Shown piece after piece: positions 20,795-63,878 of a stretch of DNA of 64,000 bases. Numbering within the stretch: position 1 is the stretch's first letter; every line of letters begins with the position of its first letter. Both the position numbers and the translations under genes were made by a program. Source of the DNA: a virus. Its lineage: Duplodnaviria; Heunggongvirae; Uroviricota; Caudoviricetes. The notes below the pieces were generated by a model. The model saw nothing but the letters and a program-made list of their open reading frames with translations. It had not been told where the DNA came from and made no database searches. The DNA is taken from IMG/VR virus record IMGVR_UViG_3300006217_000028. The stretch is one strand, 5' to 3'.

Positions 20795-20799
20795 ACCGT

Positions 20800-20991: not shown

Positions 20992-21030
20992 TCAGTATCT
21001 GCTGTACGGCATTTCTGAAAGGAGGCAATT

Positions 21031-22944: not shown

Positions 22945-22966
22945 ATACATACTTAGGAGGTTCACT

Positions 22967-23207: not shown

Positions 23208-23238
23208 CGCGAAATTCGCAAAGGCTATTGTGAAGGGA
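23208..23238 (+). promoter_or_regulatory. Conserved promoter-like motif, copy 1 (CGCGAAATTCGCAAAGGCTAT-TGTGAAGG)
   Basis: One of 10 copies sharing CGC, 18 nt, then T(A/G)TG(G/A)A, with exactly 21 nt from the C of CGC to the T. Confidence 0.5.
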
Positions 23239-23775: not shown

Positions 23776-23818
23776 GCGCAAAAATCGCAGTCCCTGTTAT
23801 GAAAGGAGGCGATATTTT

Positions 23819-24130: not shown

Positions 24131-24160
24131 CGCGAGAATATCATCGCCTTTTATGGAACG
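24131..24160 (+). promoter_or_regulatory. Conserved promoter-like motif, copy 2 (CGCGAGAATATCATCGCCTTT-TATGGAACG)
   Basis: See the motif family. Upstream of 24189. Confidence 0.5.
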
Positions 24161-24630: not shown

Positions 24631-24661
24631 CGCTAAAAATACATATCCTTTTATGGAAAAG
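24631..24661 (+). promoter_or_regulatory. Conserved promoter-like motif, copy 3 (CGCTAAAAATACATATCCTTT-TATGGAAAAG)
   Basis: See the motif family. Upstream of 24752. Confidence 0.5.
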
Positions 24662-25044: not shown

Positions 25045-25075
25045 CGCATTTTTTGCATTGTCTTTTATAGAAAAC
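25045..25075 (+). promoter_or_regulatory. Conserved promoter-like motif, copy 4 (CGCATTTTTTGCATTGTCTTT-TATAGAAAAC)
   Basis: See the motif family. Upstream of 25095. Confidence 0.5.
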
Positions 25076-25929: not shown

Positions 25930-25957
25930 CGCAATTTTTGCAATTCATATTATGAAA
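25930..25957 (+). promoter_or_regulatory. Conserved promoter-like motif, copy 5 (CGCAATTTTTGCAATTCATAT-TATGAAAG)
   Basis: See the motif family. Upstream of 25981. Confidence 0.5.
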
Positions 25958-26211: not shown

Positions 26212-26242
26212 CGCCAATTTTCCATGTTCCTTTATGAAAACC
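26212..26242 (+). promoter_or_regulatory. Conserved promoter-like motif, copy 6 (CGCCAATTTTCCATGTTCCTT-TATGAAAACC)
   Basis: See the motif family. Upstream of 26268. Confidence 0.5.
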
Positions 26243-26558: not shown

Positions 26559-27407
26559 ATGAAATTGTTCAAGTCATTAAGCAGAGTCTGTTTCAAGGCG
26601 TGTATGAGCTTAAAACGAGGCTCACCTACTATTCTGACATGTGTTGGCGCTGTTGGATTTGTAGCAACTGTAGTGATGGCTGTGCGTGCTACGCCGAAAG
26701 CAGTTAAGTTGATAGAGAACGACAGCCTAAAACAACACGACGGCGACCCATATGCGTATACAAAGAAAGAGGCGGTTCGCTCTGCCTGGAAATGTTACCT
26801 TCCCTCCGCAGCCGTAGGCGCAGCGACTTTAGCCTGTATGTTTGGTGCAAACGCTTTGAACAAACGGCAGCAAGCGTCTATTGCTAGTTTATACGCCCTT
26901 GTGGACCGTTCTTATAAGGAGTATCGCAGTAAGGTCAAGGAACTTCTTGGGGAAGACGGAGACAAGCAGATCCGAGAAGAAATAGCCAAAGACAAGTGCG
27001 CCGAAACACGTCCGCCTGAAGAGGGTTACTTGCTATTCTGCGATGAGTATCGAGGGGAGTGTTTTGAGCGCACCATGACGCAGGTCATCCAGGCAGAGTA
27101 TCATTTTAACCGCAATTTTGTACTGCGGGGCGAGGCCAGCTTGAATGAGTTCTACAGTTTCTTGAACTTGGAGCCGATTGATGGCGGTGACGAAATCGGC
27201 TGGGACATTGGTTTTGGAGAGGAATTCGCAGGATATTCCTGGATAGATTTTGAGCACGAAACATTTACAATGGAAGACGGCATGGAATGCTGCTTGATAA
27301 ACTATCCATTTCCGCCAGTTCATCTGTTAGCTACTCTCGAAGACGTTGAGGAGTACAATAAAATGCTGGAGGCGTATTATCCGCAAAAATCGCAGGCTCT
27401 GTTATGA
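26559..27407 (+). CDS. Membrane-anchored protein, paralogue family member 1 (282 aa)
   Basis: N-terminal signal-anchor SPTILTCVGAVGFVATVVMAVRATPKAVKLI plus conserved segments shared with 27630-28397 and 29459-30400 (SAxxGAxxLAC...N..NKRQQA; GWDIGFG). Confidence 0.6.
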   Translation: MKLFKSLSRVCFKACMSLKRGSPTILTCVGAVGFVATVVMAVRATPKAVKLIENDSLKQHDGDPYAYTKKEAVRSAWKCYLPSAAVGAATLACMFGANALNKRQQASIASLYALVDRSYKEYRSKVKELLGEDGDKQIREEIAKDKCAETRPPEEGYLLFCDEYRGECFERTMTQVIQAEYHFNRNFVLRGEASLNEFYSFLNLEPIDGGDEIGWDIGFGEEFAGYSWIDFEHETFTMEDGMECCLINYPFPPVHLLATLEDVEEYNKMLEAYYPQKSQALL

Positions 27408-27422
27408 AAGGAGGCGTAGTGA

Positions 27423-27584
27423 ATGAACAAATCTAACCTTTTGAAAGGCTTGAGTATTCTTGCCGCAGGAGCCGGTTTAGTATTGAACATACTGAACAGT
27501 TTTATCGATGACAAGAAGATGGAGCAAAAGATTGAGGAAAAAGTGAATGAAGCGCTGTCCAAAAGAGAGCAGGAGTCCTGACAG
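27423..27584 (+). CDS. Small membrane protein (53 aa)
   Basis: MNKSNLLKGLSILAAGAGLVLNILNSF.... RBS AAAGGAGG. Its stop is embedded in a terminator hairpin. Confidence 0.35.
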
Positions 27585-27600
27585 GGACTCTTTCTCTTTA
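27566..27600 (+). terminator. Rho-independent terminator
   Basis: GGAGTCCTGACAGGGACTC followed by TTTCTCTTTATATTTTT. Confidence 0.5.
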
Positions 27601-27629
27601 TATTTTTACAATCGAAAGGAGAGTCAGAA

Positions 27630-28397
27630 ATGGCTAAGATCAATTTTTCAGCCATTGCCAAAACTTTTGGCCGAGGTTTGAAGGAACGAAGTCCTGAAAT
27701 CCTGGTTGGTATAGGTATCGTCGGAATGATAGGTGCAGCTATTATGGCGGTAAAGGCTACACCAAAAGCCTTGGAGCAGATTAAAGAAACTGAAAGGGAA
27801 ACGAAGGAGTCGCTCACTCCTAAAGATACTTTCAAGGTAACGTGGAGGAATTATGTTCCGTCCGTAGTAACGGGGACACTCTCGGCGGCCTGCATTATTG
27901 GCGCAAATTCTATACACCTGCGTAGGAAAGCAGCCTTGTCGGCGGCATGCGCTTTGTCAGAAACAGCATTGGCAAACTTCAAATCTCATGCCATCGAGCG
28001 TATCGGCGAAAAGAAAGTTAAGGAGATTGCGGACGATGTTGCAAAAGAGCAAATTGATAAGAACCCGGTTTCTGACAAAGAGATCATCTTCACGTCTAAG
28101 GGCAATACCCTTTGCTACGACCCATGGTGTGGCAGATATTTCAGAGGAGACATAGACTACATCCGGAAAGCAGAATATTATCTCAATCAAGAGATGCAGT
28201 CCATGGGTTATACATCGCTGAATAATTTCTACTATCTGATAGGCCTCGACGAAACCAGGGTTGGAGAAACGTTGGGGTGGAACATTGCAAATGGCCGGGT
28301 GGAACTCGACTTGAGTTCTCAGCTTGCAAAAAACGATGAGCCATGCGTTGTTTTGGGTTTTTATAAAGATCCCCATTACGATTTTGAGGGCCGGTAA
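27630..28397 (+). CDS. Membrane-anchored protein, paralogue family member 2 (255 aa)
   Basis: SPEILVGIGIVGMIGAAIMAVKATPKALEQI plus the conserved core shared with members 1 and 3. Confidence 0.6.
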   Translation: MAKINFSAIAKTFGRGLKERSPEILVGIGIVGMIGAAIMAVKATPKALEQIKETERETKESLTPKDTFKVTWRNYVPSVVTGTLSAACIIGANSIHLRRKAALSAACALSETALANFKSHAIERIGEKKVKEIADDVAKEQIDKNPVSDKEIIFTSKGNTLCYDPWCGRYFRGDIDYIRKAEYYLNQEMQSMGYTSLNNFYYLIGLDETRVGETLGWNIANGRVELDLSSQLAKNDEPCVVLGFYKDPHYDFEGR

Positions 28398-28399
28398 CC

Positions 28400-28428
28400 C
28401 GCGAAAAACACAACCTCTATTATGGAAC
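28400..28428 (+). promoter_or_regulatory. Conserved promoter-like motif, copy 7 (CGCGAAAAACACAACCTCTAT-TATGGAAC)
   Basis: See the motif family. Upstream of 28464. Confidence 0.5.
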
Positions 28429-28463
28429 AGAATTCCAAATAAACTTAAAGGAGCGTACAAATT

Positions 28464-28760
28464 ATGGAAAACGCAGAAGTTGTAACGAATGAGATTATCG
28501 ACATCGCTGATCATGTCATGGAGGCTGAACCGGCCCCGGTAACGGAGGTGATTGCCAAGCGCAATGGAGGCGCATTTATGACCGGAGCGATTGCGAGCAG
28601 TGTGGCCATTGCCGCGATCTATCTGGGCTACAAATATGTCGCCAGGCCGCTTTGGGCGAGACACAAGGCTAAGAGCCGGAAACCCGAAATGATCCATACG
28701 GACGGCAAAGAGGTCGAGACAGACAGCAGCAACGAAACGCCTGAGGAAGACGAGACCTGA
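28464..28760 (+). CDS. Small membrane protein (98 aa)
   Basis: Transmembrane helix GAFMTGAIASSVAIAAIYLGY. Acidic C-terminus. RBS AAAGGAG. Confidence 0.5.
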   Translation: MENAEVVTNEIIDIADHVMEAEPAPVTEVIAKRNGGAFMTGAIASSVAIAAIYLGYKYVARPLWARHKAKSRKPEMIHTDGKEVETDSSNETPEEDET

Positions 28761-28772
28761 GTGAAGAATTCT

Positions 28773-28820
28773 GAGAGGAGAGGGCGCCTGTAACAGGGCG
28801 TCTTCTCTTTTATATTTTTT
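28773..28820 (+). terminator. Rho-independent terminator
   Basis: GAGAGGGCGCCTGTAACAGGGCGTCTTCTC followed by TTTTATATTTTTTT. Confidence 0.5.
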
Positions 28821-28837
28821 TGAAAGGGGATTCCCCA

Positions 28838-29443
28838 ATGGAAGACTATAAGTCCAATTCCCATAAAGCACGGGAAAAGGAGAGTAAAAGGGCGGAGGCC
28901 CCGCCTAAAAAAGTGGAAAAAGTTGTTTCCGGAATCGCAAAGGTACAAAAGAAAAGCGGCGTTCAGAAGTTCGCCGGAGCGCTGGTATCGGATGATATGG
29001 AGAAAGTAAAAAGCTATATCCTTGAGGATGTTATCATACCGGCTCTTAAGGATACTATCCTGGACATTGTAAAAGCGGTTCTCGGAGTAAACGGACGCTC
29101 TGATAAAAACCGTTCTACCACAAAGGTACAGTATGGCAGTTTCTTTGACAAAGGCAACGGCCGTCGTGATAAAAGAGACTATCGTTCCAGAGATGACTGC
29201 GGTTACGATAATATCGTATTTTCATCAAGGGGTGACGCTGAGGCGGTATTAAGCACTATGGACGATATTTTGGACCAGTACGGTATTGTCAGTGTCAGCG
29301 ATTTGTACGAGGCGGCGGATATTGACACAAATAACTACACGCTCAATAAAATTGGTTGGACAAGTATCCGCAGCGCAGATATTATTCGGGTTCGAGATGG
29401 GTGGATGATTAAATTTCCAAAACCAGCCCCCATTGATGACTGA
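28838..29443 (+). CDS. Hypothetical basic protein (201 aa)
   Basis: ATG 28838 after RBS AAAGGGGA. Lys/Arg-rich N-terminal half. Confidence 0.5.
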   Translation: MEDYKSNSHKAREKESKRAEAPPKKVEKVVSGIAKVQKKSGVQKFAGALVSDDMEKVKSYILEDVIIPALKDTILDIVKAVLGVNGRSDKNRSTTKVQYGSFFDKGNGRRDKRDYRSRDDCGYDNIVFSSRGDAEAVLSTMDDILDQYGIVSVSDLYEAADIDTNNYTLNKIGWTSIRSADIIRVRDGWMIKFPKPAPIDD

Positions 29444-29458
29444 TTAAGGAGGAAATTC

Positions 29459-30400
29459 ATGAAAAACCTTGCTGTATCCGGCGCTTTGCAAAAGAAAATT
29501 AGCATGGCCGGACTGAAATTGAAAAAATACTCGCCAGAGATCCTGTTGATTGGTGGGGTTGTAGGGGTGGTGGCCACGATCGTGTTGGCCTGTCGTGCTA
29601 CTACGAAAGTTGGTGATGCCCTGTCAGAGGTTGCAGAGACCTCCGAAAAAATCAACGGCGCTCTTGCTGCTGGAGTAATTCGCCAGGCTTCTGACCCGGA
29701 AAAAGAAGAAAAGTATACGGAGGATGATGCCAAGCAAGACATGACTATTGCATATGTTCATACAGCGGTCAGGTTTGCGAAACTGTATGGTCCGGCGGCT
29801 CTTCTTGGCGCAGTGTCTATCTCCAGTATAGTCCTCTCCCACAATATCATGAATAAGCGCAATCAAGCTGTTTCTGCAACATTGGCAGCTGTTACAGCCA
29901 GCTACAGTGGTTATCGTAAGAGAGTAGCCGAGCGTTTCGGTGACGAGGTTGAGCGTGAACTCAAATATGGCATCAAAGCTCGGAAGTTTGAGGAAACGGT
30001 TACAGATGAGAAAGGCAAGGAAAAGAAAGTAAAAAGCACTGTTAATGTCGCCGACCCCAATGTAGAGGACCCCTACCTGCTCTGGTTTGATGATGTTACA
30101 AGACACTATGAGCCGAATCACGATTACAAGATGATGTTCCTGAAACAGGCCCAGAATCACGCGAACGACAAGCTCCGGGCGCAGGGATACTTGTTCCTCA
30201 GCGACGTGTATGACATGTTGGATATTGAGCGAACAAAAATGAGTCAGTGCGTAGGCTGGGTCTACCGGCCAGAGGATGACAGCCGGGACAACTATGTTGA
30301 CTTTGGTATCCAGGAGCTGAACAAGGTTTCCGGAGACACATACGAGCCCTCTATTTCGTTGTGCTTCAACGTGGATGGCAATATTCTCGATATGATTTGA
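29459..30400 (+). CDS. Membrane-anchored protein, paralogue family member 3 (313 aa)
   Basis: SPEILLIGGVVGVVATIVLACRATTKVGDAL plus the conserved core (NKRNQAVSATLAAV; GWVYRPEDD). Confidence 0.6.
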   Translation: MKNLAVSGALQKKISMAGLKLKKYSPEILLIGGVVGVVATIVLACRATTKVGDALSEVAETSEKINGALAAGVIRQASDPEKEEKYTEDDAKQDMTIAYVHTAVRFAKLYGPAALLGAVSISSIVLSHNIMNKRNQAVSATLAAVTASYSGYRKRVAERFGDEVERELKYGIKARKFEETVTDEKGKEKKVKSTVNVADPNVEDPYLLWFDDVTRHYEPNHDYKMMFLKQAQNHANDKLRAQGYLFLSDVYDMLDIERTKMSQCVGWVYRPEDDSRDNYVDFGIQELNKVSGDTYEPSISLCFNVDGNILDMI

Positions 30401-31823: not shown

Positions 31824-34800
31824 ATGTTTGATTTTCTGATGATTTCAACTCGAAGTACAAAGCGCGGCGTGATAGAGATCTATCCTAAGTTCATCATTAA
31901 GAACAGCTCAGACTTAATGATACGAGGCGGAGACTTTTACGCTGTATGGCTTGAAGATCGGGGATTATGGTCTACTGACGAGCAGGACGTAGTCCGATAC
32001 ATTGATCGAGAGCTTGATATTTACGCAAAAGAAAACAGCCAGCGCTTTGACTCCAACATACAGGTTCTGCATATGTGGGACAATGAATCCGGGATGATAG
32101 ACTCCTGGCACAAATACTGCCAAAAACAAATGTGGGATAACTACCACATGCTTGACGGCAAGCTGGTATTTACCAACAGCCCGACAGACAAGAAGGATTA
32201 TTCCAGCAAGAGGCTCACATATCCCTTGGAACCCTGTGAGACACCTGCCTATGACCGTCTGACATCGGTTCTGTATACCGACGAGGAGCGTCATAAGTTT
32301 GAATGGGCGATTGGCGCAATTGTTACTGGCGCATCAAAAAAGCTACAAAAGTTTATGGTGTTCTATGGTGCTGCCGGAACAGGTAAGTCGACCATCGTGA
32401 ACATTATCGACCAGCTATTCGAGGGGTATTCCGTTGCGTTTTCAGCGAAGGAACTGGGTTCAGCGAGCAGTGCGTTTGCTATGGAACAGTTTCGGGCGAA
32501 CCCGTTGGTAGCGATAGACAATGACGCAAAACTGTCTCGGATTGACGATAATACTCGCATCAACAAGTTGGTGTCCCATGAAGTTATGACTGTAAATGAG
32601 AAGTTCCAAAAGACCTATACGAATAGTTTTCAATGTTTCCTTTTCCTGGCCACGAACGAACCTGTGAAAATTACGGACGCAAAATCCGGCCTAATCCGGC
32701 GACTGATCGACGTAGTCCCAACCGGAGATAAAATACCGGTAAAAGAGTATAACTCGCTTGTGGAACAGGTAAAGTTCGAGCTGGGGGGTATTGCCTGCCA
32801 TTGCCGGGATGTGTATCTCGCTGACCCGCACAGGTATGACGATTATATCCCAACTCGGATGTTGGGAGCGACTAATGACTTTTACAACTTTGTGCTGGAC
32901 TCCTATCCCATTTTCAAACAGGACGATGGGGTTTCAGCCAGTGCGGCCTGGGCCATGTATAAAACTTATTGTGAGGAGGCAAGGGTGCTCAATCCATTAT
33001 CCAGCAGGCCGTTTAAGGAGGAACTAAAGAACTACTTCCGTGAGTTCAAAGACCGGCCCACCCTATCGGACGGTACAAGACCTAGGCAGTATTATAGCGG
33101 ATTTCGTTTTGAGAAGTTTATGTACGATCAAAACCAGGAAAGTGCAAATTCGGAAACAGGGCCGGCCTGGCTTAACTTAGCAGAGCAACCGTCTATATTT
33201 GATACTGTGTGTGCAGACTGTCCCGCTCAGTATGCGTCATCAAAGGATACGCCAACTAGAAAATGGGATAATGTTGTCACTAAGCTGTCGGATTTGGATA
33301 CTTCAAAGGTTCATTATGCGAAGGTGCAGGAGGCTCATATAGTCGCCGACTTTGATATGGTGGACGAAAATGGTAACAAGTCTTTAGAACTCAACATGAA
33401 AGAGGCCGTCAAATGGCCACCAACATACGCCGAACTAAGCAAAAGCGGTGCCGGTATCCATCTCCATTACATGTATACAGGTGATGTGTCAAAACTAAGC
33501 CGGGTATATGACGACCATATTGAAATTAAAGTATTTACAGGCAAGTCTTCACTCCGCCGCAAATTGACAAAGTGTAATAATCTCTCAATATCGGAGATCA
33601 GCTCTGGCTTGCCATTGAAGGAGGACAGCAAAATTGTAAATTTTGAATCTATAAAAAACGAGAAAGGGCTTCGCACACTGATAAAGCGTAATCTCGCTAA
33701 AGAGATACACCCAGGAACGAAACCAAGTGTGGATTTCATATATAAGATTTTGGAGGATGCATACAATGATGGCCTGAACTATGATGTGACCAATATGCGC
33801 GGTTCAGTCCTTGCTTTTGCGGCTGGCAGCACACATCAGGCCGATTACTGCATCAAACTTGTCAACAAGATGAAGTTCAAGTCGGACGAGCCGTCCGAGC
33901 CTATCGCTAATACTTTAGAAGAAAAGCCGCTGGTGTTCTATGATGTGGAGGTCTTCCCTAACCTATTCCTTGTGAACTGGAAGGTTCAGGGCGAGGGAAA
34001 GCCAGTTGCCAGAATGATTAACCCTAAGCCGAAAGAACTTGAGGAACTTCTTAGCTTTAGGTTAGTTGGATTTAACTGCCGCCGGTACGATAACCACATC
34101 CTGTATGCAAGATATATCGGATATGATAATGAGCAGTTGTACAAGCTTTCGCAGAAAATTATATCCGGAAATTCAAACTGTTTCTTTGGGGAAGCGTATA
34201 ACCTCTCCTACACGGATGTATATGACTTTTCCAGTAAAAAGCAGTCGCTCAAAAAGTTTGAGATCGAGCTTGGCATTCACCATCAAGAGCTGGGATTGCC
34301 TTGGGATCAACCAGTGCCGGAGGAGCTGTGGATTAAAGTTGCAGAGTATTGCGACAACGATGTTTTGGCTACCGAGGCGGTGTTCAATGCTCGTAAAGCT
34401 GATTTCACAGCTAGGCAAATTCTGGCCGACGTGGCTGGTATGACTGTCAATGACACGACCAACTCGCTGACTACCAGGATTATCTTCGGTAAGAACAAGA
34501 AACCACAGAACGTCTTCAACTACCGTAACATGGGGGTAATTCCTACAGACGAGGCGGTATGTACCCATACTATCACTCCGGATGGCGTCTTCTTTACCAA
34601 TTTCGGAGATGAGGATTACACCGTATTTGACGAGTGCGGATGTCCTATCTTTCCGGGGTATAAGTATGAAAACGGCAAGTCTACATATCGCGGTGAAGAA
34701 GTTGGCGAGGGTGGATATGTCTACTCTGAGCCTGGTATGTACAGCAACATTGCCCTGCTTGATATAGCCTCTATGCATCCGTCGAGCATCGTTGCCGAGA

Positions 34801-35876
34801 AACTGTTTGGAGAAGAGTACACGCAGCGATTCAAAGATATTTTGGACGCTCGTATCGCCATTAAGCACAAGGACTTTGATAAAGCCCGGAAGATGCTGAA
34901 TGGCGCTTTGGCGAAATATCTGAACGACGAAAATGCTGCTGCCGACTTGGCTCAGGCTTTGAAAATAGCCATTAACTCGGTGTATGGCCTGACTGCCGCA
35001 AACTTTGAGAACGCATTCCGCGATGCTCGGAACAAGGACAATATAGTTGCCAAGAGAGGCGCACTGTTCATGATCAACCTCAAGCATGAAGTACAGAAAC
35101 GCGGCTTCACCGTTGCTCATATCAAAACAGATTCCATCAAGATTCCGGACGCAACTCCCGAAATCATTCAGTTTGTTATGGATTACGGTCAGCAGTACGG
35201 CTACAACTTTGAGCATGAGGCTACTTATGACCGTATGTGCCTGGTAAACGACGCCGTGTATATTGCTAAATACGCAACGGTTGAGCGGTGTGTTGATTTG
35301 TACGGGCAAGACTATGTACTCAACGCCAAGGATACAGTGAAAGACTGTAAGAAACATCCTGGCGAATGGACTGCTACCGGAACCCAGTTCCAAGTTCCCT
35401 ACGTGTTCAAGAAACTTTTCAGCAGGGAAGACATCAAGTTCGAGGATATGTGCGAGACGAAATCGGTCAGCACCGCCATCTATATCGACCGTGATCCCGA
35501 GGAAGCCTTACGCTACATCAATAATCCAAACATGACTGTCGATACCGAGAGTGATATTTGGCTGGACAACAAGCATTTGCTGCACTTTGTCGGTAAAGTA
35601 GGCTTATTTACACCGGTAAAGCCTGGAGCAGGAGGCGGTACTTTGGTTCGTAAAAGCAAGGCGAAAGACGGTACAGATAAGTACGATGCCGTTACCGGGA
35701 CGAAGGGGCATAACTGGATGGAATCCGAGATGGTGCGTATCTTGAACAAAGAAGACTATATTGACCGCTCTTACTATGATAATTTGGTTACTGAAGCGGC
35801 CGAGTCCATCTCAAAGCACGGTGATTTCGAGTGGTTCACATCGGACGATGTTTTGGAGGCTGCCAAGACCGCGTAA
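31824..35876 (+). CDS. Multidomain replicase: SF3 (D5/P4-type) helicase + primase-like domain + family B DNA polymerase with 3-prime to 5-prime exonuclease
   Basis: 1350 aa. Walker A VFYGAAGTGKST. The P4/D5 helicase C-terminal signature ...SHEVMTVNEKFQKTYTNSFQCFLFLATNEP. Primase-like DxD (IVADFDMVDENG) and sGxGxH (SGAGIHLHYMY). PolB Exo I YDVEV and Exo II (delta-type) YCDNDVLAT. Motif A LLDIASMHPSSI (DxxSLYPS), motif B KIAINSVYG (KxxxNSxYG), motif C HIKTDSI (YGDTDS-like). Confidence 0.8.
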   Translation: MFDFLMISTRSTKRGVIEIYPKFIIKNSSDLMIRGGDFYAVWLEDRGLWSTDEQDVVRYIDRELDIYAKENSQRFDSNIQVLHMWDNESGMIDSWHKYCQKQMWDNYHMLDGKLVFTNSPTDKKDYSSKRLTYPLEPCETPAYDRLTSVLYTDEERHKFEWAIGAIVTGASKKLQKFMVFYGAAGTGKSTIVNIIDQLFEGYSVAFSAKELGSASSAFAMEQFRANPLVAIDNDAKLSRIDDNTRINKLVSHEVMTVNEKFQKTYTNSFQCFLFLATNEPVKITDAKSGLIRRLIDVVPTGDKIPVKEYNSLVEQVKFELGGIACHCRDVYLADPHRYDDYIPTRMLGATNDFYNFVLDSYPIFKQDDGVSASAAWAMYKTYCEEARVLNPLSSRPFKEELKNYFREFKDRPTLSDGTRPRQYYSGFRFEKFMYDQNQESANSETGPAWLNLAEQPSIFDTVCADCPAQYASSKDTPTRKWDNVVTKLSDLDTSKVHYAKVQEAHIVADFDMVDENGNKSLELNMKEAVKWPPTYAELSKSGAGIHLHYMYTGDVSKLSRVYDDHIEIKVFTGKSSLRRKLTKCNNLSISEISSGLPLKEDSKIVNFESIKNEKGLRTLIKRNLAKEIHPGTKPSVDFIYKILEDAYNDGLNYDVTNMRGSVLAFAAGSTHQADYCIKLVNKMKFKSDEPSEPIANTLEEKPLVFYDVEVFPNLFLVNWKVQGEGKPVARMINPKPKELEELLSFRLVGFNCRRYDNHILYARYIGYDNEQLYKLSQKIISGNSNCFFGEAYNLSYTDVYDFSSKKQSLKKFEIELGIHHQELGLPWDQPVPEELWIKVAEYCDNDVLATEAVFNARKADFTARQILADVAGMTVNDTTNSLTTRIIFGKNKKPQNVFNYRNMGVIPTDEAVCTHTITPDGVFFTNFGDEDYTVFDECGCPIFPGYKYENGKSTYRGEEVGEGGYVYSEPGMYSNIALLDIASMHPSSIVAEKLFGEEYTQRFKDILDARIAIKHKDFDKARKMLNGALAKYLNDENAAADLAQALKIAINSVYGLTAANFENAFRDARNKDNIVAKRGALFMINLKHEVQKRGFTVAHIKTDSIKIPDATPEIIQFVMDYGQQYGYNFEHEATYDRMCLVNDAVYIAKYATVERCVDLYGQDYVLNAKDTVKDCKKHPGEWTATGTQFQVPYVFKKLFSREDIKFEDMCETKSVSTAIYIDRDPEEALRYINNPNMTVDTESDIWLDNKHLLHFVGKVGLFTPVKPGAGGGTLVRKSKAKDGTDKYDAVTGTKGHNWMESEMVRILNKEDYIDRSYYDNLVTEAAESISKHGDFEWFTSDDVLEAAKTA

Positions 35877-40988: not shown

Positions 40989-41019
40989 CGCGCAAAATAC
41001 AGTTTCTATTATGGAAGGA
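40989..41019 (+). promoter_or_regulatory. Conserved promoter-like motif, copy 8 (CGCGCAAAATACAGTTTCTAT-TATGGAAGGA)
   Basis: See the motif family. Upstream of 41033. Confidence 0.5.
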
Positions 41020-49218: not shown

Positions 49219-49249
49219 CGTGAAAATTACAGACGCTATTGTGAAAGAG
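49219..49249 (+). promoter_or_regulatory. Conserved promoter-like motif, copy 10 (CGTGAAAATTACAGACGCTAT-TGTGAAAGAG)
   Basis: See the motif family. Followed by hairpin AGAGCTGAGAGAAATCTTGGCTCTTT. Upstream of 49303. Confidence 0.45.
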
Positions 49250-49302: not shown

Positions 49303-49551
49303 ATGAACGAAACTGGCAAAGAAATCTTGTGTACCGGGTGCGCCCACAGAGAAGTATGCGAGCGAAAAAACGAATACCAGCACGCCGCGGTACTTGCAAA
49401 CGACATCATCGAAGAATTGATGGATAGAGTACGTTTACAGTTGCGCACTATTCCTTGGGTTCATGTACGGTCACCTGAAGTAAATTGCGATTATTTCATG
49501 AGGCGGCGCAAAATGGCGACGGTATGGGACAACGGAGGTACCAATGAGTAA
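49303..49551 (+). CDS. Hypothetical protein (82 aa)
   Basis: RBS AGGAAGGGG. Confidence 0.45.
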   Translation: MNETGKEILCTGCAHREVCERKNEYQHAAVLANDIIEELMDRVRLQLRTIPWVHVRSPEVNCDYFMRRRKMATVWDNGGTNE

Positions 49552-50506
49552 AGAATACGATGAATACCTACAAGAGCATCGATCAAACCTCTGCTTTGGT
49601 CTGGAATGGCTTAAGCAGAATCTTCCTGAGGTGCTTGAAGGAGCGTACAATATTGACTGGCTCGTTCAGAACGCCCATGACCATTCTAAGTACGGGTCGG
49701 AAGAATACAACGCCTACGATACATATTTCTACACAAACATCAAATCGTATCGCGTCCAGCAGGATTTTCAGCTAGCCTGGCTCCATCACATCCATCATAA
49801 CCCTCACCATTGGCAGCACTGGGTGCTTATCAACGACGATCCAGCAGAAGGAACTGTCTGCCTTGAGATGCCGCGATGCTATATCATTGAAATGATTTGC
49901 GACTGGTGGTCTTTCAGTTGGGCTAAGAATGATTTGACGGAGATATTTCGTTGGTATGACGAGCATCGGGAACACATACTGCTGCATAAGAACACTCGAG
50001 AGATGGTCGAGGATATTCTTGGCAAAATGGCGGAAAAACTTGACTATACGGGCGAGTTGTGTCATCATGGTGTAAAAGGGCAGAAGTGGGGTGTACGCAA
50101 TGGGCCGCCGTATCCTTTAGGCGAAGGTGATAAGTCGGCGGAGGAGAGAAAAGCTGATGGTAATAGAACTAACATCGTCAAACAGGCGATTCAGTCGGGA
50201 AAAGTTTCGACTAAAATTAACCGTGAAAAGCAAAAAAGACATACACAAGATGACCACACGCCAGGAAAAAGCTATATTCATGGAGATTTAATAGAGGCGC
50301 AACACCTTGTGGATACACTCAGTGGTACAGGGAAAGCACTTGAAGGGCGAGACGGAGCTTGGAACCATCGCGAAAGAGTTTCACATAGCGACATAATCGG
50401 TACGCATGTAGACGAAAAGGGTGTCGAAACTCCATCTAAAAATGCGATAATCGTTTATTCCAAGACTGGAAGTCACATTTATCCAGCAAAGAAGAAAGGA
50501 GACTAA
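49544..50506 (+). CDS. Hypothetical protein (320 aa) with His-rich segment HHIHHNPHHWQHW
   Basis: RBS GGAGGT. The C-terminal 20 aa recur in degenerate form at 50841-50900. Confidence 0.5.
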   Translation: MSKEYDEYLQEHRSNLCFGLEWLKQNLPEVLEGAYNIDWLVQNAHDHSKYGSEEYNAYDTYFYTNIKSYRVQQDFQLAWLHHIHHNPHHWQHWVLINDDPAEGTVCLEMPRCYIIEMICDWWSFSWAKNDLTEIFRWYDEHREHILLHKNTREMVEDILGKMAEKLDYTGELCHHGVKGQKWGVRNGPPYPLGEGDKSAEERKADGNRTNIVKQAIQSGKVSTKINREKQKRHTQDDHTPGKSYIHGDLIEAQHLVDTLSGTGKALEGRDGAWNHRERVSHSDIIGTHVDEKGVETPSKNAIIVYSKTGSHIYPAKKKGD

Positions 50507-59873: not shown

Positions 59874-59902
59874 CGCGAAAAACGCACACCCTTTTATGAA
59901 GA
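59874..59902 (+). promoter_or_regulatory. Conserved promoter-like motif, copy 9 (CGCGAAAAACGCACACCCTTT-TATGAAGAG)
   Basis: See the motif family. Followed by hairpin AGAGAGAAGAAAATAAGGCCCGAAATACCTTTTGGGCTTTCTCT. Upstream of 59975. Confidence 0.5.
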
Positions 59903-59974: not shown

Positions 59975-60265
59975 ATGCTTGAGAGCCAATTTCAACATGA
60001 TCTCATCGAAGATCTGGAAACAATGCTTCCAGACTGTATTATTCTGAAAAATGATCCTAATTATATCCAAGGTATTCCCGACCTTCTGGTGCTCTATCGG
60101 AATAAGTGGGCTGCTTTGGAGTGTAAGAAAAGCGCAACCGCTAAACAGCAACCGAACCAGGAGTATTATGTTGGGTGTATGAATGCGATGTCTTTTTCTA
60201 GGTTCATATATCCTGAAAATAAGGAGGAAGTTTTACATGAACTTCTACAGGCATTCCGATCTTGA
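59975..60265 (+). CDS. PD-(D/E)XK nuclease-like protein (VRR-NUC-like, 96 aa)
   Basis: GIPDLLVLYRNKWAALECKK shows a PD...E.K catalytic signature. RBS GGGAGGTGGG. Confidence 0.5.
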   Translation: MLESQFQHDLIEDLETMLPDCIILKNDPNYIQGIPDLLVLYRNKWAALECKKSATAKQQPNQEYYVGCMNAMSFSRFIYPENKEEVLHELLQAFRS

Positions 60266-60794
60266 AGGGCAGCACGCCTTTCTTGGAGCAAGCAAATTTC
60301 ATTGGATACGTTATGATGAAACAAAACTTGCGGATAGCTATACCAAGTTTCTTGCTATACAAAAGGGTACAGAACTCCACTCCTTCGCAGCTCAGTGTAT
60401 CCGTTTGGGGCAAAAGCTCCCTAAATCCAAGAAAACACTGAATATGTATGTTAACGACGCTATTGGCTTTAAGATGACGCCCGAGCAGCCTTTGTTCTAC
60501 TCAGAAAACTGTTTTGGCACGGCGGACGCGATCTCATTTCGAAAGAACCACCTCCAGATACACGATCTGAAGACAGGCGTAATACCCGCCCATATGGAGC
60601 AGCTGCTAATTTATGCTGCTCTTTTTTGTTTGGAGTATCAGATGAAAGCCTCTGGTATTACGATTGAACTTCGTATCTACCAGGCAAATGATATTTTAGT
60701 TTGCGTACCTACGTCAGAAGACGTAGCCCAGGTTATCGACAAGATTGTAACCTTCGACAAGGTGATTAACAAAATTAAACTTCAGGAGGGTTAA
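60237..60794 (+). CDS. PD-(D/E)XK-family nuclease-like protein (185 aa)
   Basis: CFGTADAISF...LQIHDLKTG (D...D.K). RBS AAGGAGGAAG. Overlaps the previous gene by 29 nt. Confidence 0.4.
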   Translation: MNFYRHSDLEGQHAFLGASKFHWIRYDETKLADSYTKFLAIQKGTELHSFAAQCIRLGQKLPKSKKTLNMYVNDAIGFKMTPEQPLFYSENCFGTADAISFRKNHLQIHDLKTGVIPAHMEQLLIYAALFCLEYQMKASGITIELRIYQANDILVCVPTSEDVAQVIDKIVTFDKVINKIKLQEG

Positions 60795-60798
60795 TCTT

Positions 60799-63618
60799 AT
60801 GGGGGCAATTTTGAACGAGATAGAAGATGTGCTGATGCACTATGGTATGCCGAGGCGTTCTGGACGGTATCCCTGGGGGTCAGGGGAAAATCCCTATCAG
60901 CATAGCGGCGACTTTCTCAGCCGTGTGTATGAGCTTAGAAAGCAAAACTTTACTTACACAGATGAGGATGGTAAGCTGTGGACTGGTGATACCGCTATCG
61001 CGAAGTCTATGGGCCTTACCAGCAGTCAGCTCAGAACTCAGATGAGTCTAGCAAAGGATGAGCGAAGATCACTACAAGTAGCCACGGCCAAGGGGCTGCG
61101 CGAGAAAGGGTACAGCCTTAATGAAATTGCCGAAAAGATGGGTTTCGCAAATGATTCATCTGTGCGCTCCCTACTCAACGAGAATGCTGAGGCTCGTATG
61201 AACAAGGCGAGAAATGTTGCCGATATTCTGCGGAATGAACTGGAAACAAAGAAAATGATCGACGTTGGCGCCGGTGTTGAGCGTGAACTCGGGGTCTCTC
61301 GGGAAAAACTCGAAGAGGCCCTCTATATTTTGCAGATGGAAGGTTATCCCGTCTACGGTGGTGGCGTTGCGCAGGCTACCAACAAAGGCAAGCAAACCAA
61401 CCTGAAAGTTCTATGCCAACCGGGTACGGAACACAAAGAGATGTACGAATACGGTGAGATACAGTCGCTTATCGACTATACTTCCGATGATGGCGGCGAA
61501 ACGTTTCGCAAGGCGTTTCAGTACCCTGAAAGTATGGATTCTGGCCGGCTACAAATTCGTTATGCGGAAGATGGCGGTGTCAACAAAGACGGCGTGATTG
61601 AACTTCGCCGAGGCGTTTCTGACTTGTCGCTAGGCGAATCCAACTATGCTCAGGTTCGAATTCTTGTCGACGGAAACCGGTATATCAAAGGTATGGCGGT
61701 TTATGGAGATGATGCTGACTTCCCTCCAGGGGTCGATGTAATCTTTAACACAAACAAGAAAAGCGGCGTTCCAAAGATGGATGTACTAAAACCCATCAGC
61801 GCTGACCCCGACAATCCCTTTGGGTCCCTTATTAAAGAGCATGGCGGGCAAAGCACCTACATCGACAAAGATGGTAAAGAAAGGCTGTCTCTTATCAATA
61901 AGCGCGCTGAAGAAGGCGATTGGGGGGATTGGAGCGACAATCTTCCCTCCCAGTTCTTATCAAAGCAAAGTATGCCGCTTATCAAGAAACAGCTTAATCT
62001 GGCTGCCGCTGATAGAGAGGCTGAATTCAACGAAATCTGTGCTCTTACCAATCCAACCGTTAAGAAACGGCTGTTACAATCGTTCGCTGATGATTGCGAT
62101 GCAGCGGCTGTGCATCTGAAAGCAGCGGCATTGCCAAGACAAAAGTATCAGGTAATTCTACCATTGACTTCCGTCAAGGACGCAGAAGTATATGCTCCTA
62201 ATTACCATGATGGCGAGACTGTGGCTCTTATTCGGTACCCCCATGGGGGTACTTTCGAGATACCTATCCTTAAGGTAAATAACAAGCTTCCTGAAGGGCA
62301 GAGAGTGCTTGGAAAGACCCCAGCTGACGCTATCGGAATAAATAAAAAGGTTGCTGATCGGTTATCAGGCGCTGACTTTGATGGGGACACGGTTATGGTA
62401 ATTCCCTGTAATTCCTCCCGGTCTAATGTGAAGATTACCTCGACTCCTCCTTTGAGGGGGCTTGAGGGATTTGACCCCAAAGATAAGTACCAGTATGACA
62501 CAAAGACCATGGACTCTGCCGGTAATGTTCACTATTACCGTAATGGGGTCGAATTCAAAGCGATGCGGAATACCCAGACAGAGATGGGTAAGATTTCCAA
62601 CTTGATTACGGATATGACGTTGAAAGGAGCCTGTCAGGATGAAATAGCCCGTGCCGTCCGGCACAGTATGGTTGTCATCGATGCTGAAAAACATGGCTTG
62701 GACTATAAGCGCAGCGCCCAGGAAAATGGTATATCCGCCCTTAAAAAGAGCTACCAGTACCGAGTTGATGAAGACGGTACTGTTCATGACGGAGCGTCAA
62801 CCCTTATTTCCAGGGCCAGCTCTGAGAAGTCGGTACCCAAGCGGCGTGGCAGTCCACAGATAGACCCTGATACTGGCGAGCAGAGCTGGAAACTTGCTAG
62901 AGATAGTGATCGTTTCTACACTGTGGAAAAAGTTAACAAGCGAACCGGCGAAGTAAAAACCGTGCAAAAAGAGCGAACTCAGCAGAGCACACAAATGGCC
63001 GAGACTCGTGACGCTAGGCGTCTGTCCTCCGGTACAAAACAGGAAGAAGCCTACGCTGATTATGCTAATCGGATGAAAGCACTTGGCAATAAAGCGAGAA
63101 AAGAGATGGTTTCGACTGGCCGCATAAAGTATGATGCCTCAGCTAAAGCGGTCTACAAGAAAGAAGTCGATTCTCTTAATGCAAAGCTGAATGTATCCTT
63201 GAAGAATGCTCCACGCGAACGCCAGGCTCAGACAATGGCCAACGCTACCATGAAGGCTAAAAAGCAAGAGTATCCAGACATGACTAAGGCTGAAGAGAAA
63301 AAAGCGAGTCAGCAAGCTCTTACTGCATCGCGCTTAAAAGTTGGTGCACAGCGCAGCCCGATTAAAATTACTGATCGTGAATGGGAAGCGATTCAAGCAG
63401 GCGCAATCACTGAGAATCAACTGTCAAAAATTCTTAACAATGCGGACATTGACGACATCCGGAAAAGAGCAACGCCTCGGGCAACGACACAGCTCAGCCA
63501 GTCTAAAATCAGTTTGATCTCCTCTCTCAAGGCGTCTGGCTACACTACGTCGCAAATCGCTGCTCGTCTCGGCATATCGTCTTCTACTGTAACAAAGTAT
63601 CTCAATGGAAAGGGGTGA
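60799..63618 (+). CDS. Putative YonO-like single-polypeptide two-barrel RNA polymerase with N- and C-terminal sigma-region-4-like HTH modules
   Basis: 939 aa. ...ALIRYPHGGTFEIPILKVNNKLPEGQRVLGKTPADAIGINKKVADRLSGADFDGDTVMVIP aligns with the beta-prime DPBB catalytic loop [48 protein letters not shown] (R.P, EP.L, ADFDGD..MaV.P). HTH-like GYSLNEIAEKMGFANDSSVRSLL at aa about 95-120. GYTTSQIAARLGISSSTVTKYL at the extreme C-terminus. Size is close to SPbeta YonO. Confidence 0.45.
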   Translation: MGAILNEIEDVLMHYGMPRRSGRYPWGSGENPYQHSGDFLSRVYELRKQNFTYTDEDGKLWTGDTAIAKSMGLTSSQLRTQMSLAKDERRSLQVATAKGLREKGYSLNEIAEKMGFANDSSVRSLLNENAEARMNKARNVADILRNELETKKMIDVGAGVERELGVSREKLEEALYILQMEGYPVYGGGVAQATNKGKQTNLKVLCQPGTEHKEMYEYGEIQSLIDYTSDDGGETFRKAFQYPESMDSGRLQIRYAEDGGVNKDGVIELRRGVSDLSLGESNYAQVRILVDGNRYIKGMAVYGDDADFPPGVDVIFNTNKKSGVPKMDVLKPISADPDNPFGSLIKEHGGQSTYIDKDGKERLSLINKRAEEGDWGDWSDNLPSQFLSKQSMPLIKKQLNLAAADREAEFNEICALTNPTVKKRLLQSFADDCDAAAVHLKAAALPRQKYQVILPLTSVKDAEVYAPNYHDGETVALIRYPHGGTFEIPILKVNNKLPEGQRVLGKTPADAIGINKKVADRLSGADFDGDTVMVIPCNSSRSNVKITSTPPLRGLEGFDPKDKYQYDTKTMDSAGNVHYYRNGVEFKAMRNTQTEMGKISNLITDMTLKGACQDEIARAVRHSMVVIDAEKHGLDYKRSAQENGISALKKSYQYRVDEDGTVHDGASTLISRASSEKSVPKRRGSPQIDPDTGEQSWKLARDSDRFYTVEKVNKRTGEVKTVQKERTQQSTQMAETRDARRLSSGTKQEEAYADYANRMKALGNKARKEMVSTGRIKYDASAKAVYKKEVDSLNAKLNVSLKNAPRERQAQTMANATMKAKKQEYPDMTKAEEKKASQQALTASRLKVGAQRSPIKITDREWEAIQAGAITENQLSKILNNADIDDIRKRATPRATTQLSQSKISLISSLKASGYTTSQIAARLGISSSTVTKYLNGKG

Positions 63619-63878
63619 GCTTGGTGATTGAAAGAAGATGCGCTCTGACCACCTTTGACAACCCGTACGATCCGTTCGACGAGTTCACTCAGTGGTGGCT
63701 CTATGACGAGATGCGTGGTTACCATTCTTGCGCGTATCTTGCTCGTATCGCCAGAACCTCCGATCAGTTCACCGATGAGGAGAATGATAGAGAGGTAGAG
63801 AGAGCCATCGACGAAATTATCGATCTTGATTTCATGGCGATATACAAGAAAGTGGTTCAAGAAACAGTTGCGGCTTAG
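63615..63878 (+). CDS. Hypothetical phage protein (87 aa)
   Basis: GTG start overlapping the upstream stop. Conserved-looking DNPYDPFDEFTQWWLYDE motif. Confidence 0.45.
   Translation: MSLVIERRCALTTFDNPYDPFDEFTQWWLYDEMRGYHSCAYLARIARTSDQFTDEENDREVERAIDEIIDLDFMAIYKKVVQETVAA

Follow-up and report, generated by a model that had tools for sequence, protein, structure and literature searches.

Does this phage genome code for an RNA polymerase that finds its own promoters? The question is raised by a gene at 60799..63618 (+ strand) of the window, by which we mean the whole 64,000-nucleotide stretch of Caudoviricetes DNA that was analyzed (IMG/VR record IMGVR_UViG_3300006217_000028). A first-pass annotation read the 939-aa product as a candidate YonO-like two-barrel RNA polymerase with sigma-region-4-like helix-turn-helix (HTH) segments at both ends, regarded such a fusion as unusual, and suggested that the enzyme may pair with a promoter-like motif repeated in the window. 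The open reading frame, a match to PHROG 4291, an AF2 model and fold matches indicate that the gene codes for a single-subunit RNA polymerase of the two-barrel type to which HTH modules are fused, and comparative genomics suggests that a 28-nt motif is its promoter.

The two-barrel catalytic core and its family

The open reading frame and its signature motifs were found where they had been described, with RYPHGG starting at aa 479, EIPIL at aa 487, SGADFDGD at aa 523 and GYTTSQIAARLGISSSTVTKYL at aa 914 near the C-terminus, except that 31 residues rather than 25 separate EIPIL from SGADFDGD. The full-length product matches PHROG 4291 ("RNA-dependent RNA polymerase") with E=0 and 1291 bits, aa 5-938 aligning to profile positions 5-908/909. 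The AF2 model (pLDDT 79.3, pTM 0.64) was compared with the PDB using Foldseek, and the top 18 matches are all to QDE-1 or RDR2 (E 1.3e-8 to 1.3e-4), with P74-26 gp62 as a further fold match, while a BFVD fold search returned only other phage 'RdRP' proteins (E ~4e-7). Structure prediction, which had been suggested as a check for two double-psi beta-barrel (DPBB) domains, places both in the protein as the catalytic centre that characterizes the two-barrel superfamily, with QDE-1/RDR as the nearest fold. This bears out the proposed polymerase core, as does the conservation of its catalytic residues in 48 homologs.

Specifically, the first, beta-subunit-like barrel (aa ~250-330, 61546..61788, + strand) is defined by modeled beta-strands at 251-317, DPBB fold matches and columns that are invariant in the 48 homologs, namely D264, R270, R287, K297, G298, D313 and K320. 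D264, R287 and K297 lie within this predicted barrel, and by their position in it may correspond to D709, R738 and K743 of the beta-like barrel of QDE-1 (PMC2919709). The HYLKG sequence of this barrel appears akin to the HGNKG motif of beta subunits. The second, beta'-like catalytic barrel (aa 449-537, 62143..62409, + strand) is assigned from invariant columns, fold matches and a sub-threshold match to PF05183, and it contains R479-x-P481 together with the metal-binding loop D526-F-D528-G-D530, whose codons are at 62374..62388 (+ strand). R479, P481, H482, G484 and S523-D530 are invariant in the 48 homologs, down to 39% identity, so the RYPHGG and SGADFDGD motifs are not chance features. Among these, R479, P481, D526, D528 and D530 make up the R-x-P and DxDxD signature of a beta'-like barrel, the QDE-1 counterparts being R962, P964, D1007, D1009 and D1011, and the R-to-D spacing is 47 residues versus 45 in QDE-1 (residue list in PMC2919709). 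Fold and conservation establish a two-barrel active site, and enzyme activity is presumed from it. On the 3' side of the catalytic barrel, two conserved helices (592-608 and 613-632 in the model; aa 590-634, 62566..62700, + strand) are a candidate equivalent of the bridge helix and trigger loop, with invariant residues that include M596, G597, S600, N601, D605, H622, D628, K631 and H632. The two barrels and the bridge-like helices hardly differ among three clades, whereas the HTH modules vary.

This kinship is detectable only by fold or HHpred-type methods. Searches of PDB-chain sequences with either the single protein or a 48-sequence profile returned HTH proteins and no polymerase. The Pfam RdRP model PF05183 scores 20.5 bits against a gathering cut-off of 23.8 (E 2.3e-4, aa 517-640 only), making the phage polymerase a fold relative of the eukaryotic RdRPs and not a member by the Pfam criterion, and neither Pfam nor NCBIfam holds a model for the family core. 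Aligning the 48-sequence profile to YonO with hhalign, a weak test given that YonO entered as a single sequence, gave a probability of 0.4% over 18 columns. Thus, 'YonO-like' holds only in the loose superfamily sense of an earlier review (PMC2919709).

The two-barrel reading is not itself new, as the family was predicted earlier in the literature and is annotated in PHROGs and RefSeq. The 2010 review of Ruprich-Robert and Thuriaux placed the phage-1706 family among "YonO-like" proteins (PMC2919709), and a 2021 preprint (bioRxiv 10.1101/842583) described the same architecture, RdRP-like by HHpred with a DxDGD loop and HTHs at both ends, for the 'HTH domain protein / putative RNA polymerase' of an actinophage supercluster plus FP_oengus. 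At 50% identity the family falls into at least 1,194 clusters, and the best 150 of these contain proteins of 864-1,068 aa that match end to end. The fusion of HTH, barrel, barrel and HTH is therefore the fixed architecture of a large family and not the oddity that it had been taken for. Identity to the 939-aa protein is 51% for FP_oengus, ~48% for Gordonia and Arthrobacter phage proteins and 38% for ORF75 of phage 1706 (BLASTP, full length). Faecalibacterium phage Oengus, whose protein belongs to the family, has been reported from as many as 40% of human gut virome samples (PMC5883640). The family is thus abundant, yet its records mostly carry the labels 'helix-turn-helix DNA-binding domain protein', with nothing further in many cases, or 'RNA-dependent RNA polymerase', the PHROG and RefSeq name that was transferred by homology. 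The database label of 1706 orf75, of its ReqiPoco6 homolog and of some JGI homologs is 'structural protein'.

HTH modules at both ends of the polymerase

In regards to the N-terminus, the protein begins with a conserved peptide of the form HYGxPRxSGRYPWGSGxNP (aa 8-36, 60820..60906, + strand) that is predicted to be disordered (pLDDT <50 for aa 1-37) and in which H14, G16, S21, G22, R23 and P25 are invariant. It was not found in distant clades or in other proteins of related phages. A link to DUF7211, a motif of putative head-internal/toxin proteins, was considered and rejected given a sub-threshold E of 0.058 and the absence of the peptide from distant clades; it stays a weak lead, and a role as a packaging signal is speculation. 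We also observed that the peptide is similar to HHGxKGQKWG peptides in neighboring proteins.

Next comes a helical stretch (aa 39-151, 60913..61251, + strand) that holds two HTH motifs and in which the model has helices at 63-70, 75-102, 107-114 and 119-125. These N-terminal HTHs (aa ~63-151, for example GYSLNEIAEKMG at 104) are supported by the model helices and by weak profile matches, including a PHROG 8 transcriptional regulator (E 1.5e-5 at aa 98-174) and SinR (E 0.45), and the family profile also matches HTHs of IS21-type transposases and CAP repeats in this region. A helix-helix-beta-hairpin in the model at aa 153-207 (61255..61419, + strand) may form a winged-helix-like module, as judged from secondary structure. 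At the other end lie two three-helix HTH modules (aa 855-937, 63361..63609, + strand; model helices 859-891 and 901-935), the last of which holds GYTTSQIAARLGISSSTVTKYL. Four Pfam models score above their cut-offs here, HTH_38 (29.1 bits), HTH_7, HTH_23 and, by a small margin, Sigma70_r4_2 (26.4 versus 25.7 bits), with Sigma70_r4 falling below its own (19.4 versus 24.1 bits). The description of these segments as sigma-region-4-like survives for the C-terminus, where the sigma matches are confined to aa 913-935, while the N-terminal segments are generic HTHs.

The polymerase is not a sigma factor and has at most a comparable HTH for reading an upstream promoter block. Its likeness to sigma-70 region 4 and to resolvase/IS30-type HTHs is limited to the last 40 residues, generic HTH families outscore the sigma model there, and neither sigma region 2 nor region 3 had a Pfam match among the best 25 of 33 families. 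A scan of 30 ORFs of 120 aa or longer for a phage sigma factor that might read the motif turned up no such domain.

A conserved operon and a 28-nt motif

The polymerase gene belongs to an operon on the + strand that starts with a VRR-Nuc-type endonuclease gene (59975..60265; PHROG 93, E 4.7e-13, and a gene call in a near-identical contig), continues with a Cas4-family/PD-(D/E)XK exonuclease gene that directly precedes the polymerase gene (60237..60794; PHROG 3953, E 1.5e-78), and has an 87-aa conserved ORF overlapping the polymerase stop codon (63615..63878; PHROG 4303, E 4.6e-34). The small ORF is present 3' of the polymerase gene in all related phages examined. The order VRR-Nuc, Cas4-type exonuclease, polymerase, small ORF and genome end recurs in Annihilus, Secretariat, Arcadia, FP_oengus and ReqiPoco6, with individual synteny assigned for the VRR-Nuc gene in Annihilus and for the exonuclease in FP_oengus, Arcadia, Secretariat and Annihilus. 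In Lactococcus phages P078 and 1706, the polymerase gene is preceded not by nucleases but by a lysin/amidase gene, plus a small ORF in 1706. On a circular map the next module after the polymerase gene is that for packaging and head (TerL/portal/capsid). An integrase gene at 21031..22218 indicates that the phage is temperate.

Upstream of this operon and of other non-structural genes lies a 28-nt motif, CGC-N8-CA-N4-CT-N-TWATG-RAA, with 14 copies in the window that are all on the + strand. A PWM scan gave these 14 sites at 25.8 bits or more, and no other site on either strand scored above 12 bits; the pattern itself was matched 13 times versus 0.38 expected. The copy directly upstream of the nuclease/nuclease/polymerase operon is at 59874..59901 (40.2 bits). 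The remaining copies are at 20287..20314 (32.4 bits), 22919..22946 (32.3), 23208..23235 (38.7), 23777..23804 (40.5), 24131..24158 (31.7), 24631..24658 (39.2), 25045..25072 (25.8; the most divergent, with TTATA for TTATG), 25930..25957 (31.8), 26212..26239 (31.3), 27382..27409 (42.0), 28400..28427 (39.0), 40989..41016 (34.8) and 49219..49246 (38.4). Those at 23777, 27382 and 40989 run directly into a GGAGG Shine-Dalgarno sequence at motif positions 29-33. Within the window's tail genes (1-20 kb) there are no copies, and neither are there any between the polymerase and portal genes in contig L012; in a variant contig, L013, copies are found upstream of small genes before TerL.

The same pattern occurs in register in phages of Gordonia (10 matches versus 0.24 expected), Arthrobacter (9 versus 0.43) and Faecalibacterium (7 versus 0.39), and by eye in a Streptomyces phage. 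Most phages examined also have a copy at the same position upstream of the operon, at 27684 in FP_oengus, 45972 in Gordonia phage Secretariat and 46053 in Arcadia, with weaker or by-eye copies at 13860 in ReqiPoco6 (PWM 11.3 bits) and 39422 in Annihilus. Actinophage copies carry CCCC at positions 29-32, and one FP_oengus copy abuts the 5' end of a tRNA such that tRNA position 1 is motif position 27. The motif has no -35 element, and a lenient sigma-70 scan picked up 1-2 of 11 motif sites, with canonical TTGACT-17-TATAAT sites present in the same region near the integrase. In actinophage and Lactococcus copies, positions 19-24 are TATAAT, the hexamer that housekeeping sigma factors universally have as their -10 consensus, and host RNA polymerase could therefore use such sites. 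A literature search with the motif strings returned unrelated primers only.

Two further candidates did not hold up. A second promoter class, [TG]ATATTT, was rejected for the window since its intergenic TATATTTT copies are the tails of hairpin terminators and its GATATTT copies are mostly coding. Covariation of an HTH recognition helix with the missing CGC block of Lactococcus phages was likewise rejected, as HTH-N2 is indeed most divergent there but is confounded by overall divergence. As a separate observation, TGATATTT in FP_oengus has a strand bias of 33:0.

A proposed self-guided polymerase weighed against other roles and known systems

Our preferred reading, which we hold to be somewhat probable, is that of a compact single-subunit two-barrel RNA polymerase that reads the 28-nt motif through its own HTHs and may be carried in the virion. 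The catalytic core would span approximately residues 250-650, closest in likeness to the QDE-1/RDR enzymes, with D526, D528 and D530 holding the catalytic magnesium and D264, R287 and K297 of the first barrel completing the active site. Two or three N-terminal and two C-terminal HTH modules flanking this core would find promoters on the double-stranded DNA of the phage with no need of a sigma factor. These promoters would be the 28-nt elements ahead of non-structural genes and of the polymerase's own operon, with three conserved blocks about one helical turn apart and transcription probably starting at ~G25-A27 within the TWATGRA block. The weakest step is that the enzyme might be made late, packed into the virion and brought in along with the DNA so as to start early transcription. 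Late synthesis and virion carriage are suggested by the 'structural protein' label of the 1706 homolog and by the location of the gene immediately upstream of the packaging/head module; that label is a database annotation, which counts against the firmness of this step. A fuller version is doubtful in our view. In it, a ~400-residue core with its own HTHs and no sigma or host subunit would read a three-block promoter from ~-24 to +3, be virion-carried, make early transcription independent of the host and work across phyla.

The pairing of polymerase and motif that had been suggested is strengthened by the cross-phage data, and the motif as promoter of this enzyme is what comparative genomics would predict, with the qualification that co-occurrence across phages is confounded by shared ancestry. 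An unlikely but sizable alternative is that the enzyme is a true DNA-dependent RNA polymerase that transcribes the downstream structural genes from another promoter, while host RNA polymerase, using a TATAAT-like -10 at positions 19-24 and possibly helped by a phage activator on the CGC/CA blocks, reads the motif for early/middle genes and the polymerase operon. YonO, the only characterized prophage relative, transcribes the late operon of SPbeta and not early genes, from one start site just downstream of yonO, and here too a structural module lies 3' of the polymerase gene while tail genes and the polymerase-to-portal interval in L012 are devoid of motif copies. The perfect TATAAT of the actinophage and Lactococcus copies speaks for use of the motif by host polymerase, as does the temperate lifestyle, since no virion-borne enzyme is at hand on induction and the host must then express the polymerase operon despite the same motif. 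However, a host sigma factor would not enforce the identical spacing of CGC, CA and CT in phages of Clostridia and Actinobacteria, and a motif that lacks a -35 element and is mostly passed over by the lenient sigma-70 scan is poorly suited to one. The FP_oengus tRNA, which begins 3 nt past the putative -10, argues in the same direction, although this is a single site that could also reflect an upstream promoter and processing. The CCCC of the actinophage copies also weighs against this alternative, as do the L013 copies before TerL and a search of the interval from the polymerase gene to TerL in three related phages, which yielded only coding similarities and a cos-like repeat and no late-promoter element common to them.

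Other roles are less probable. It is improbable that the enzyme is a primase or primer-synthesizing polymerase making RNA primers or processing replication intermediates in concert with the neighboring VRR-Nuc and Cas4-type nucleases, its HTHs targeting an origin, since a fused primase/DNA polymerase is already encoded at 31824..35876 (PHROG 4210 and primase matches), as it is in relatives, and five HTH-type modules with 14 dispersed, strand-specific sites directly upstream of genes suit transcription better. A true RdRP that uses RNA of the phage or host as template to make dsRNA or antisense RNA, with a role in regulation or counter-defense, would agree with the closest folds (QDE-1 and RDR2), the sub-threshold Pfam RdRP match and the name used by PHROG and RefSeq. 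We consider this quite improbable because that name was transferred by homology, QDE-1 is described as also being a DNA-dependent RNA polymerase (PMC9508822), the solved or characterized phage relatives (YonO, P23-45 gp64 and gp96) transcribe DNA, and multiple dsDNA-binding HTH modules are hard to reconcile with an RNA template. Very improbable indeed is an inactive relic, a DNA-binding regulator or virion structural protein with a leftover polymerase-like fold, as records that say only 'helix-turn-helix DNA-binding domain protein' or 'structural protein' might imply; across clades that reach down to 39% identity, every expected active-site residue is invariant and conservation is highest in the catalytic regions, the opposite of a decayed enzyme.

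The family offers a tractable case of promoter finding, given a small enzyme with built-in DNA-binding modules and a candidate promoter in phages of two bacterial phyla. The accompanying motif is a concrete handle for testing the family, and because modules and candidate promoter are defined, in vitro reconstitution and structural work are straightforward to design. If sigma-independent and promoter-specific, the enzyme could become a compact orthogonal expression tool for Gram-positive bacteria. If enzyme and promoter do travel together, the same expression system would serve Clostridia, lactococci and Actinobacteria alike, and this would go some way toward explaining how this phage lineage crossed phylum boundaries.

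Among known systems, YonO of the Bacillus prophage SPbeta is likewise a single-subunit two-barrel RNA polymerase of a temperate Firmicutes phage, with its gene directly upstream of late structural genes. It differs in serving one promoter and one late operon, and in that the published accounts consulted do not mention HTH modules; how YonO recognizes its promoter is a stated open question for single-subunit two-barrel polymerases (PMC5467207). QDE-1 of Neurospora and plant RDR2, eukaryotic cellular RdRPs of PF05183, share only 10-14% identity with the phage protein, whose core is much smaller and has HTH modules in place of the eukaryotic N-terminal domains, and the dsDNA-phage setting, unlike that of QDE-1 and RDR2, makes DNA-templated transcription the likelier role. 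The non-virion polymerase of P23-45/P74-26 (gp64/gp62), the virion polymerase gp96 and gp66 of phi14:2, a phage of crAss-like type, are unrelated in sequence, come from phages of Thermus or Bacteroidota, and have no described HTH fusions, gp96 being fused to a tape measure. For N4 vRNAP, phi14:2 gp66 and P23-45 gp96 the enzyme is packaged in the virion, a delivery that is suggested here by database annotation alone. The closest system is the ORF75 family of Lactococcus phage 1706, which has the same order of HTHs, two barrels and HTHs and the same place beside a Cas4-type exonuclease at the genome end. Papers on that family contained no structural confirmation, cross-phylum 28-nt motif or 'structural protein' link, and what is new relative to the published picture is thus the motif that travels with the polymerase together with the 'structural protein' annotation of the 1706 homolog. 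There is no essential difference between that family and the polymerase described here, which adds to it a new member from a temperate phage of gut Clostridia type.

Fold and conservation of the polymerase

Inspection of the + strand ORF at 60799..63618 confirmed that it encodes a 939-aa protein, and the motifs cited in the first-pass annotation were located at residues 479 (start of RYPHGG), 487 (EIPIL) and 523 (SGADFDGD), with the C-terminal GYTTSQIAARLGISSSTVTKYL at residue 914. EIPIL and SGADFDGD are however separated by 31 residues and not 25 as had been given there. The C-terminal HTH, previously described as sigma-region-4-like, scores above the Pfam thresholds for HTH_38, HTH_7 and HTH_23, and by a small margin also above that for Sigma70_r4_2. 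The sole polymerase-type Pfam signal is a sub-threshold match of aa 517-640 to RdRP PF05183 of the QDE-1 family (20.5 bits vs a cut-off of 23.8).

We also compared the predicted structure of the protein (mean pLDDT 79.3, pTM 0.64) with the PDB using Foldseek. All 18 matches with E <= 1.3e-4 are to QDE-1 or plant RDR2, with weak matches to beta'/Rpb1 chains coming next, so this comparison points to neither the lack of a DPBB fold nor the placement of the DFDGD loop in a TOPRIM fold. In an alignment of 48 homologs, which fall into three clades of roughly 70-100%, 50% and 40% identity, the invariant columns of the second barrel include R479, P481, H482 and D526-F-D528-G-D530, and those of the first barrel are D264, R270, R287, K297, G298, D313 and K320. 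D264, R287 and K297 would be the counterparts of QDE-1 D709, R738 and K743, a match based only on position and motif similarity. The two barrels and the pair of helices after them (aa 590-634) are nearly identical between clades, with the HTH modules being more variable. The core reading of a two-barrel RNA polymerase with HTHs is thus supported. The description of this protein as YonO-like is true only at the superfamily level, since a profile comparison of the polymerase family with YonO itself found no similarity (probability 0.4%).

The 28-nt motif and its candidate readers

A weight matrix built from the repeat families of the promoter-like 28-nt motif (CGC-N8-CA-N4-CT-N-TWATG-RAA, counted from CGC) identified 14 sites in the window at or above 25.8 bits, all on the + strand, with nothing else above 12 bits on either strand. 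The degenerate pattern CGC-N8-CA-N4-CY-N-TTATG has 13 matches in the window vs 0.38 expected. Every copy is followed, after 15-60 nt, by a Shine-Dalgarno sequence and a start codon; 11 are among small genes at 20.3-28.4 kb, and the remaining three are at 40989, 49219 and, just upstream of the polymerase operon, 59874. The pattern is also enriched, in register, in Gordonia phage Secretariat (10 vs 0.24 expected), Arthrobacter phage Arcadia (9 vs 0.43) and Faecalibacterium phage FP_oengus (7 vs 0.39), where 15 + strand motif sites include one before the Cas4/polymerase operon. In Streptomyces phage Annihilus the motif is visible by eye in six intergenic regions, and Lactococcus phage P078 has kept its 3' half (TTTTACATACCCTATAATG, about 10 copies) with the CGC block absent. 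The conserved blocks (positions 1-3, 12-13 and 18-25) are spaced about one helical turn apart.

Several features accompany these copies. A tRNA is immediately 3' of a copy in FP_oengus (L002 2936-3005; ARAGORN gave no anticodon) and in P078 (L005 19568-19631). Region 26559..30400 contains three paralogous DUF6353 genes (26559..27407, 27630..28397 and 29459..30400), the first two each preceded by a copy (26212 and 27382), and a copy at 28400 precedes both ORF 28820..29443 and the third paralog. Hairpin terminators at 24006-24033, 27571-27592, 28774-28811, 41264-41290, 44459-44485 and 49247-49280 share an unusual tail, CTCTTTCT(C)TTTATATTTTT, and several are just 5' of the ribosome-binding site of the next gene, giving promoter-gene-terminator cassettes in the non-structural region.

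We favor recognition of the motif by the phage polymerase, which would start transcription at about G25-A27, on the basis of several points against host RNAP and because a search of the 30 window ORFs of 120 aa or more returned no sigma factor domain. The phages share ancestry, which confounds the co-occurrence of enzyme and motif. Reading by host RNAP would account for the TATAAT at positions 19-24 of the actinophage and Lactococcus copies, but the motif has no -35 element, and a lenient sigma-70 scan that detects canonical sites near the lysogeny genes detected only 1-2 of the 11 motif sites at 20-29 kb. Also against host RNAP are the constant spacing of CGC, CA and CT across phages of two phyla, the GGAGG at positions 29-33 of three window copies, and the CCCC at positions 29-32 of actinophage copies that have purines at 25-27. 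Furthermore, position 1 of the FP_oengus tRNA (as delimited by Rfam) is motif position 27, only 3 nt past the putative -10, which is too close and so disfavors a sigma-70-type start at this site.

These points also bear on the main rival, in which the enzyme is a late-gene polymerase of the YonO type and the motif is read by host RNAP; given the YonO precedent, we consider this a serious though minority possibility. It is improbable that the enzyme is a primase, as the phage has its own fused primase/DNA polymerase (31824..35876), and slightly more so that it is a true RdRP, given its dsDNA-binding modules. An inactive relic is the least credible of these roles as the active-site residues are invariant.

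Host-type promoters are present in the window where the lysogeny genes are found. A - strand ORF without family match (19845..20264) is downstream of a near-consensus TTGACT-17-TATAAT (20558..20530, - strand), the integrase gene (21031..22218) is served by a separate TG-extended promoter TTGAAT-17-TG-TATAAT (20959..20987), and the first motif copy (20287) is situated between the two. The interval 19845..21031 is likely a lysogeny switch.

Genome context and virion association

The window is that of a temperate siphophage that, in addition to the integrase, codes for a tape measure protein (66..6479, with in-frame tandem repeats of ~177 nt), tail proteins, a helicase and nucleotide-metabolism genes. 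ORF 10346..11449 contains in-frame tandem repeats of 126/42 nt and is rich in alanine, serine and glutamate. A diversity-generating retroelement (11466..15774) comprises a 110-nt repeat pair, variable (13847-13956) and template (14428-14537), with the reverse transcriptase ORF 3' of it (14671..15774; PHROG 1423, E 2e-105). Adenines of the 14428 copy account for 12 of the 13 repeat-core mismatches, and the C-terminus of tail protein ORF 11466..13976 is encoded by the variable copy, so receptor binding is probably what the retroelement diversifies. The 8-mer TGATATTT is present 33 times on the + strand and 0 times on the - strand of FP_oengus, at coding and ribosome-binding-site-adjacent positions; related [TG]ATATTT words are strand-biased 51:10 in the window (20-61 kb), and C[TG]ATATTT is over-represented in Rhodococcus phage ReqiPoco6. 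Such words could serve as a strand-specific DNA signal, for instance a Chi-like one, or could be a codon artefact.

The polymerase gene comes third in an operon that starts with a VRR-Nuc endonuclease (59975..60265) and a Cas4-type exonuclease (60237..60794) and continues with a small ORF (63615..63878), a gene order common to FP_oengus and to Arthrobacter, Gordonia, Streptomyces and Rhodococcus phages. In contigs that encode an identical polymerase, a ~460-nt non-coding gap comes next, followed by connector, TerL, portal and capsid genes; the polymerase gene is therefore directly upstream of the late module on a circular map, a position that fits late expression and packaging. The gap spans 13080-13545 of L012, a related contig running past the window end, and its start is window 63879-64000. 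Within it are a GGAGGGGGT...ACCCCCTCC hairpin and an inverted repeat of ~23 bp (CCAGGGCTCTTTTAAGGACCTAT / ATAGGTCCTTAAAAGAGCCCTGG). FP_oengus and MT835495 have a similar element with CCCCGG, and the gap is probably a cos/packaging region.

A full-length homolog with 38% identity, phage 1706 orf75, is labelled "structural protein" in GenBank. Two further 1706 genes outside the morphogenesis module have the same label, which suggests that it has an experimental basis, reportedly the virion proteomics of Garneau et al. in 2008. The annotation of the ReqiPoco6 homolog cites that of 1706 orf75. A problem for a virion-carried polymerase is that the phage is temperate, so induction requires host-driven expression of the polymerase operon despite the same motif preceding it.

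The invariant yet predicted-disordered N-terminal peptide of the polymerase, HYGxPRxSGRYPWGSG, weakly resembles the DUF7211 peptide HHGxKGQKWG, a lead only, because in Pfam it scores below threshold (E 0.058) and we found nothing published on DUF7211. HHG(I/V)KGQKWGVR is present in three proteins (window 49544..50506, a toxin-domain protein, and L012 14850-15734 and 15983-16909), followed in one by an Ntox50 toxin domain, in another by a glutamine-deamidase papain-fold toxin domain and in the third by a coiled-coil region. The genes for two of the three lie between the cos-like gap and TerL, and these proteins may be virion-delivered effectors.

Relation to known polymerase families

From end to end, the polymerase matches PHROG 4291, which bears the name "RNA-dependent RNA polymerase" (E=0, 1291 bits). 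Using tblastn, full-length homologs with at most 54% identity were found in 250 phage records, including 95 from Arthrobacter, 55 from Gordonia, 54 from Streptomyces and 13 from Lactococcus phages, as well as Rhodococcus, Microbacterium and Curtobacterium phages and FP_oengus. They are annotated as "RNA-dependent RNA polymerase", "putative RNA polymerase", "helix-turn-helix DNA-binding domain protein" or "hypothetical protein", and twice as "structural protein". NCBIfam has no model for the polymerase core, and our literature search found no biochemical study on any PHROG 4291-family member. When 1.84 billion representative proteins were searched exhaustively with the family profile, 1,194 clusters were retrieved at E <= 1e-30, the best 150 of which are all 864-1,068 aa long and cover the profile end to end. 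The fusion of polymerase and HTHs, which the first-pass annotation had considered unusual, is the fixed state of the family.

Ruprich-Robert and Thuriaux (PMC2919709) placed the phage-1706 protein among five "YonO-like" families that share eight invariant active-site residues. Koert et al. (bioRxiv 10.1101/842583) described this protein as one that matches RdRP in HHpred, has a DxDGD loop and carries HTH domains at each terminus, the same terms as those of the first-pass annotation, and recognized it as a signature gene of a phage group that spans two host phyla. The polymerase is an added member of this previously predicted family, its activity likewise being predicted. What is new relative to these studies is the fold evidence, a promoter-like motif that crosses phyla and carries start-site constraints, and the link to virion annotations, which together make of an annotation a mechanism that can be tested directly.
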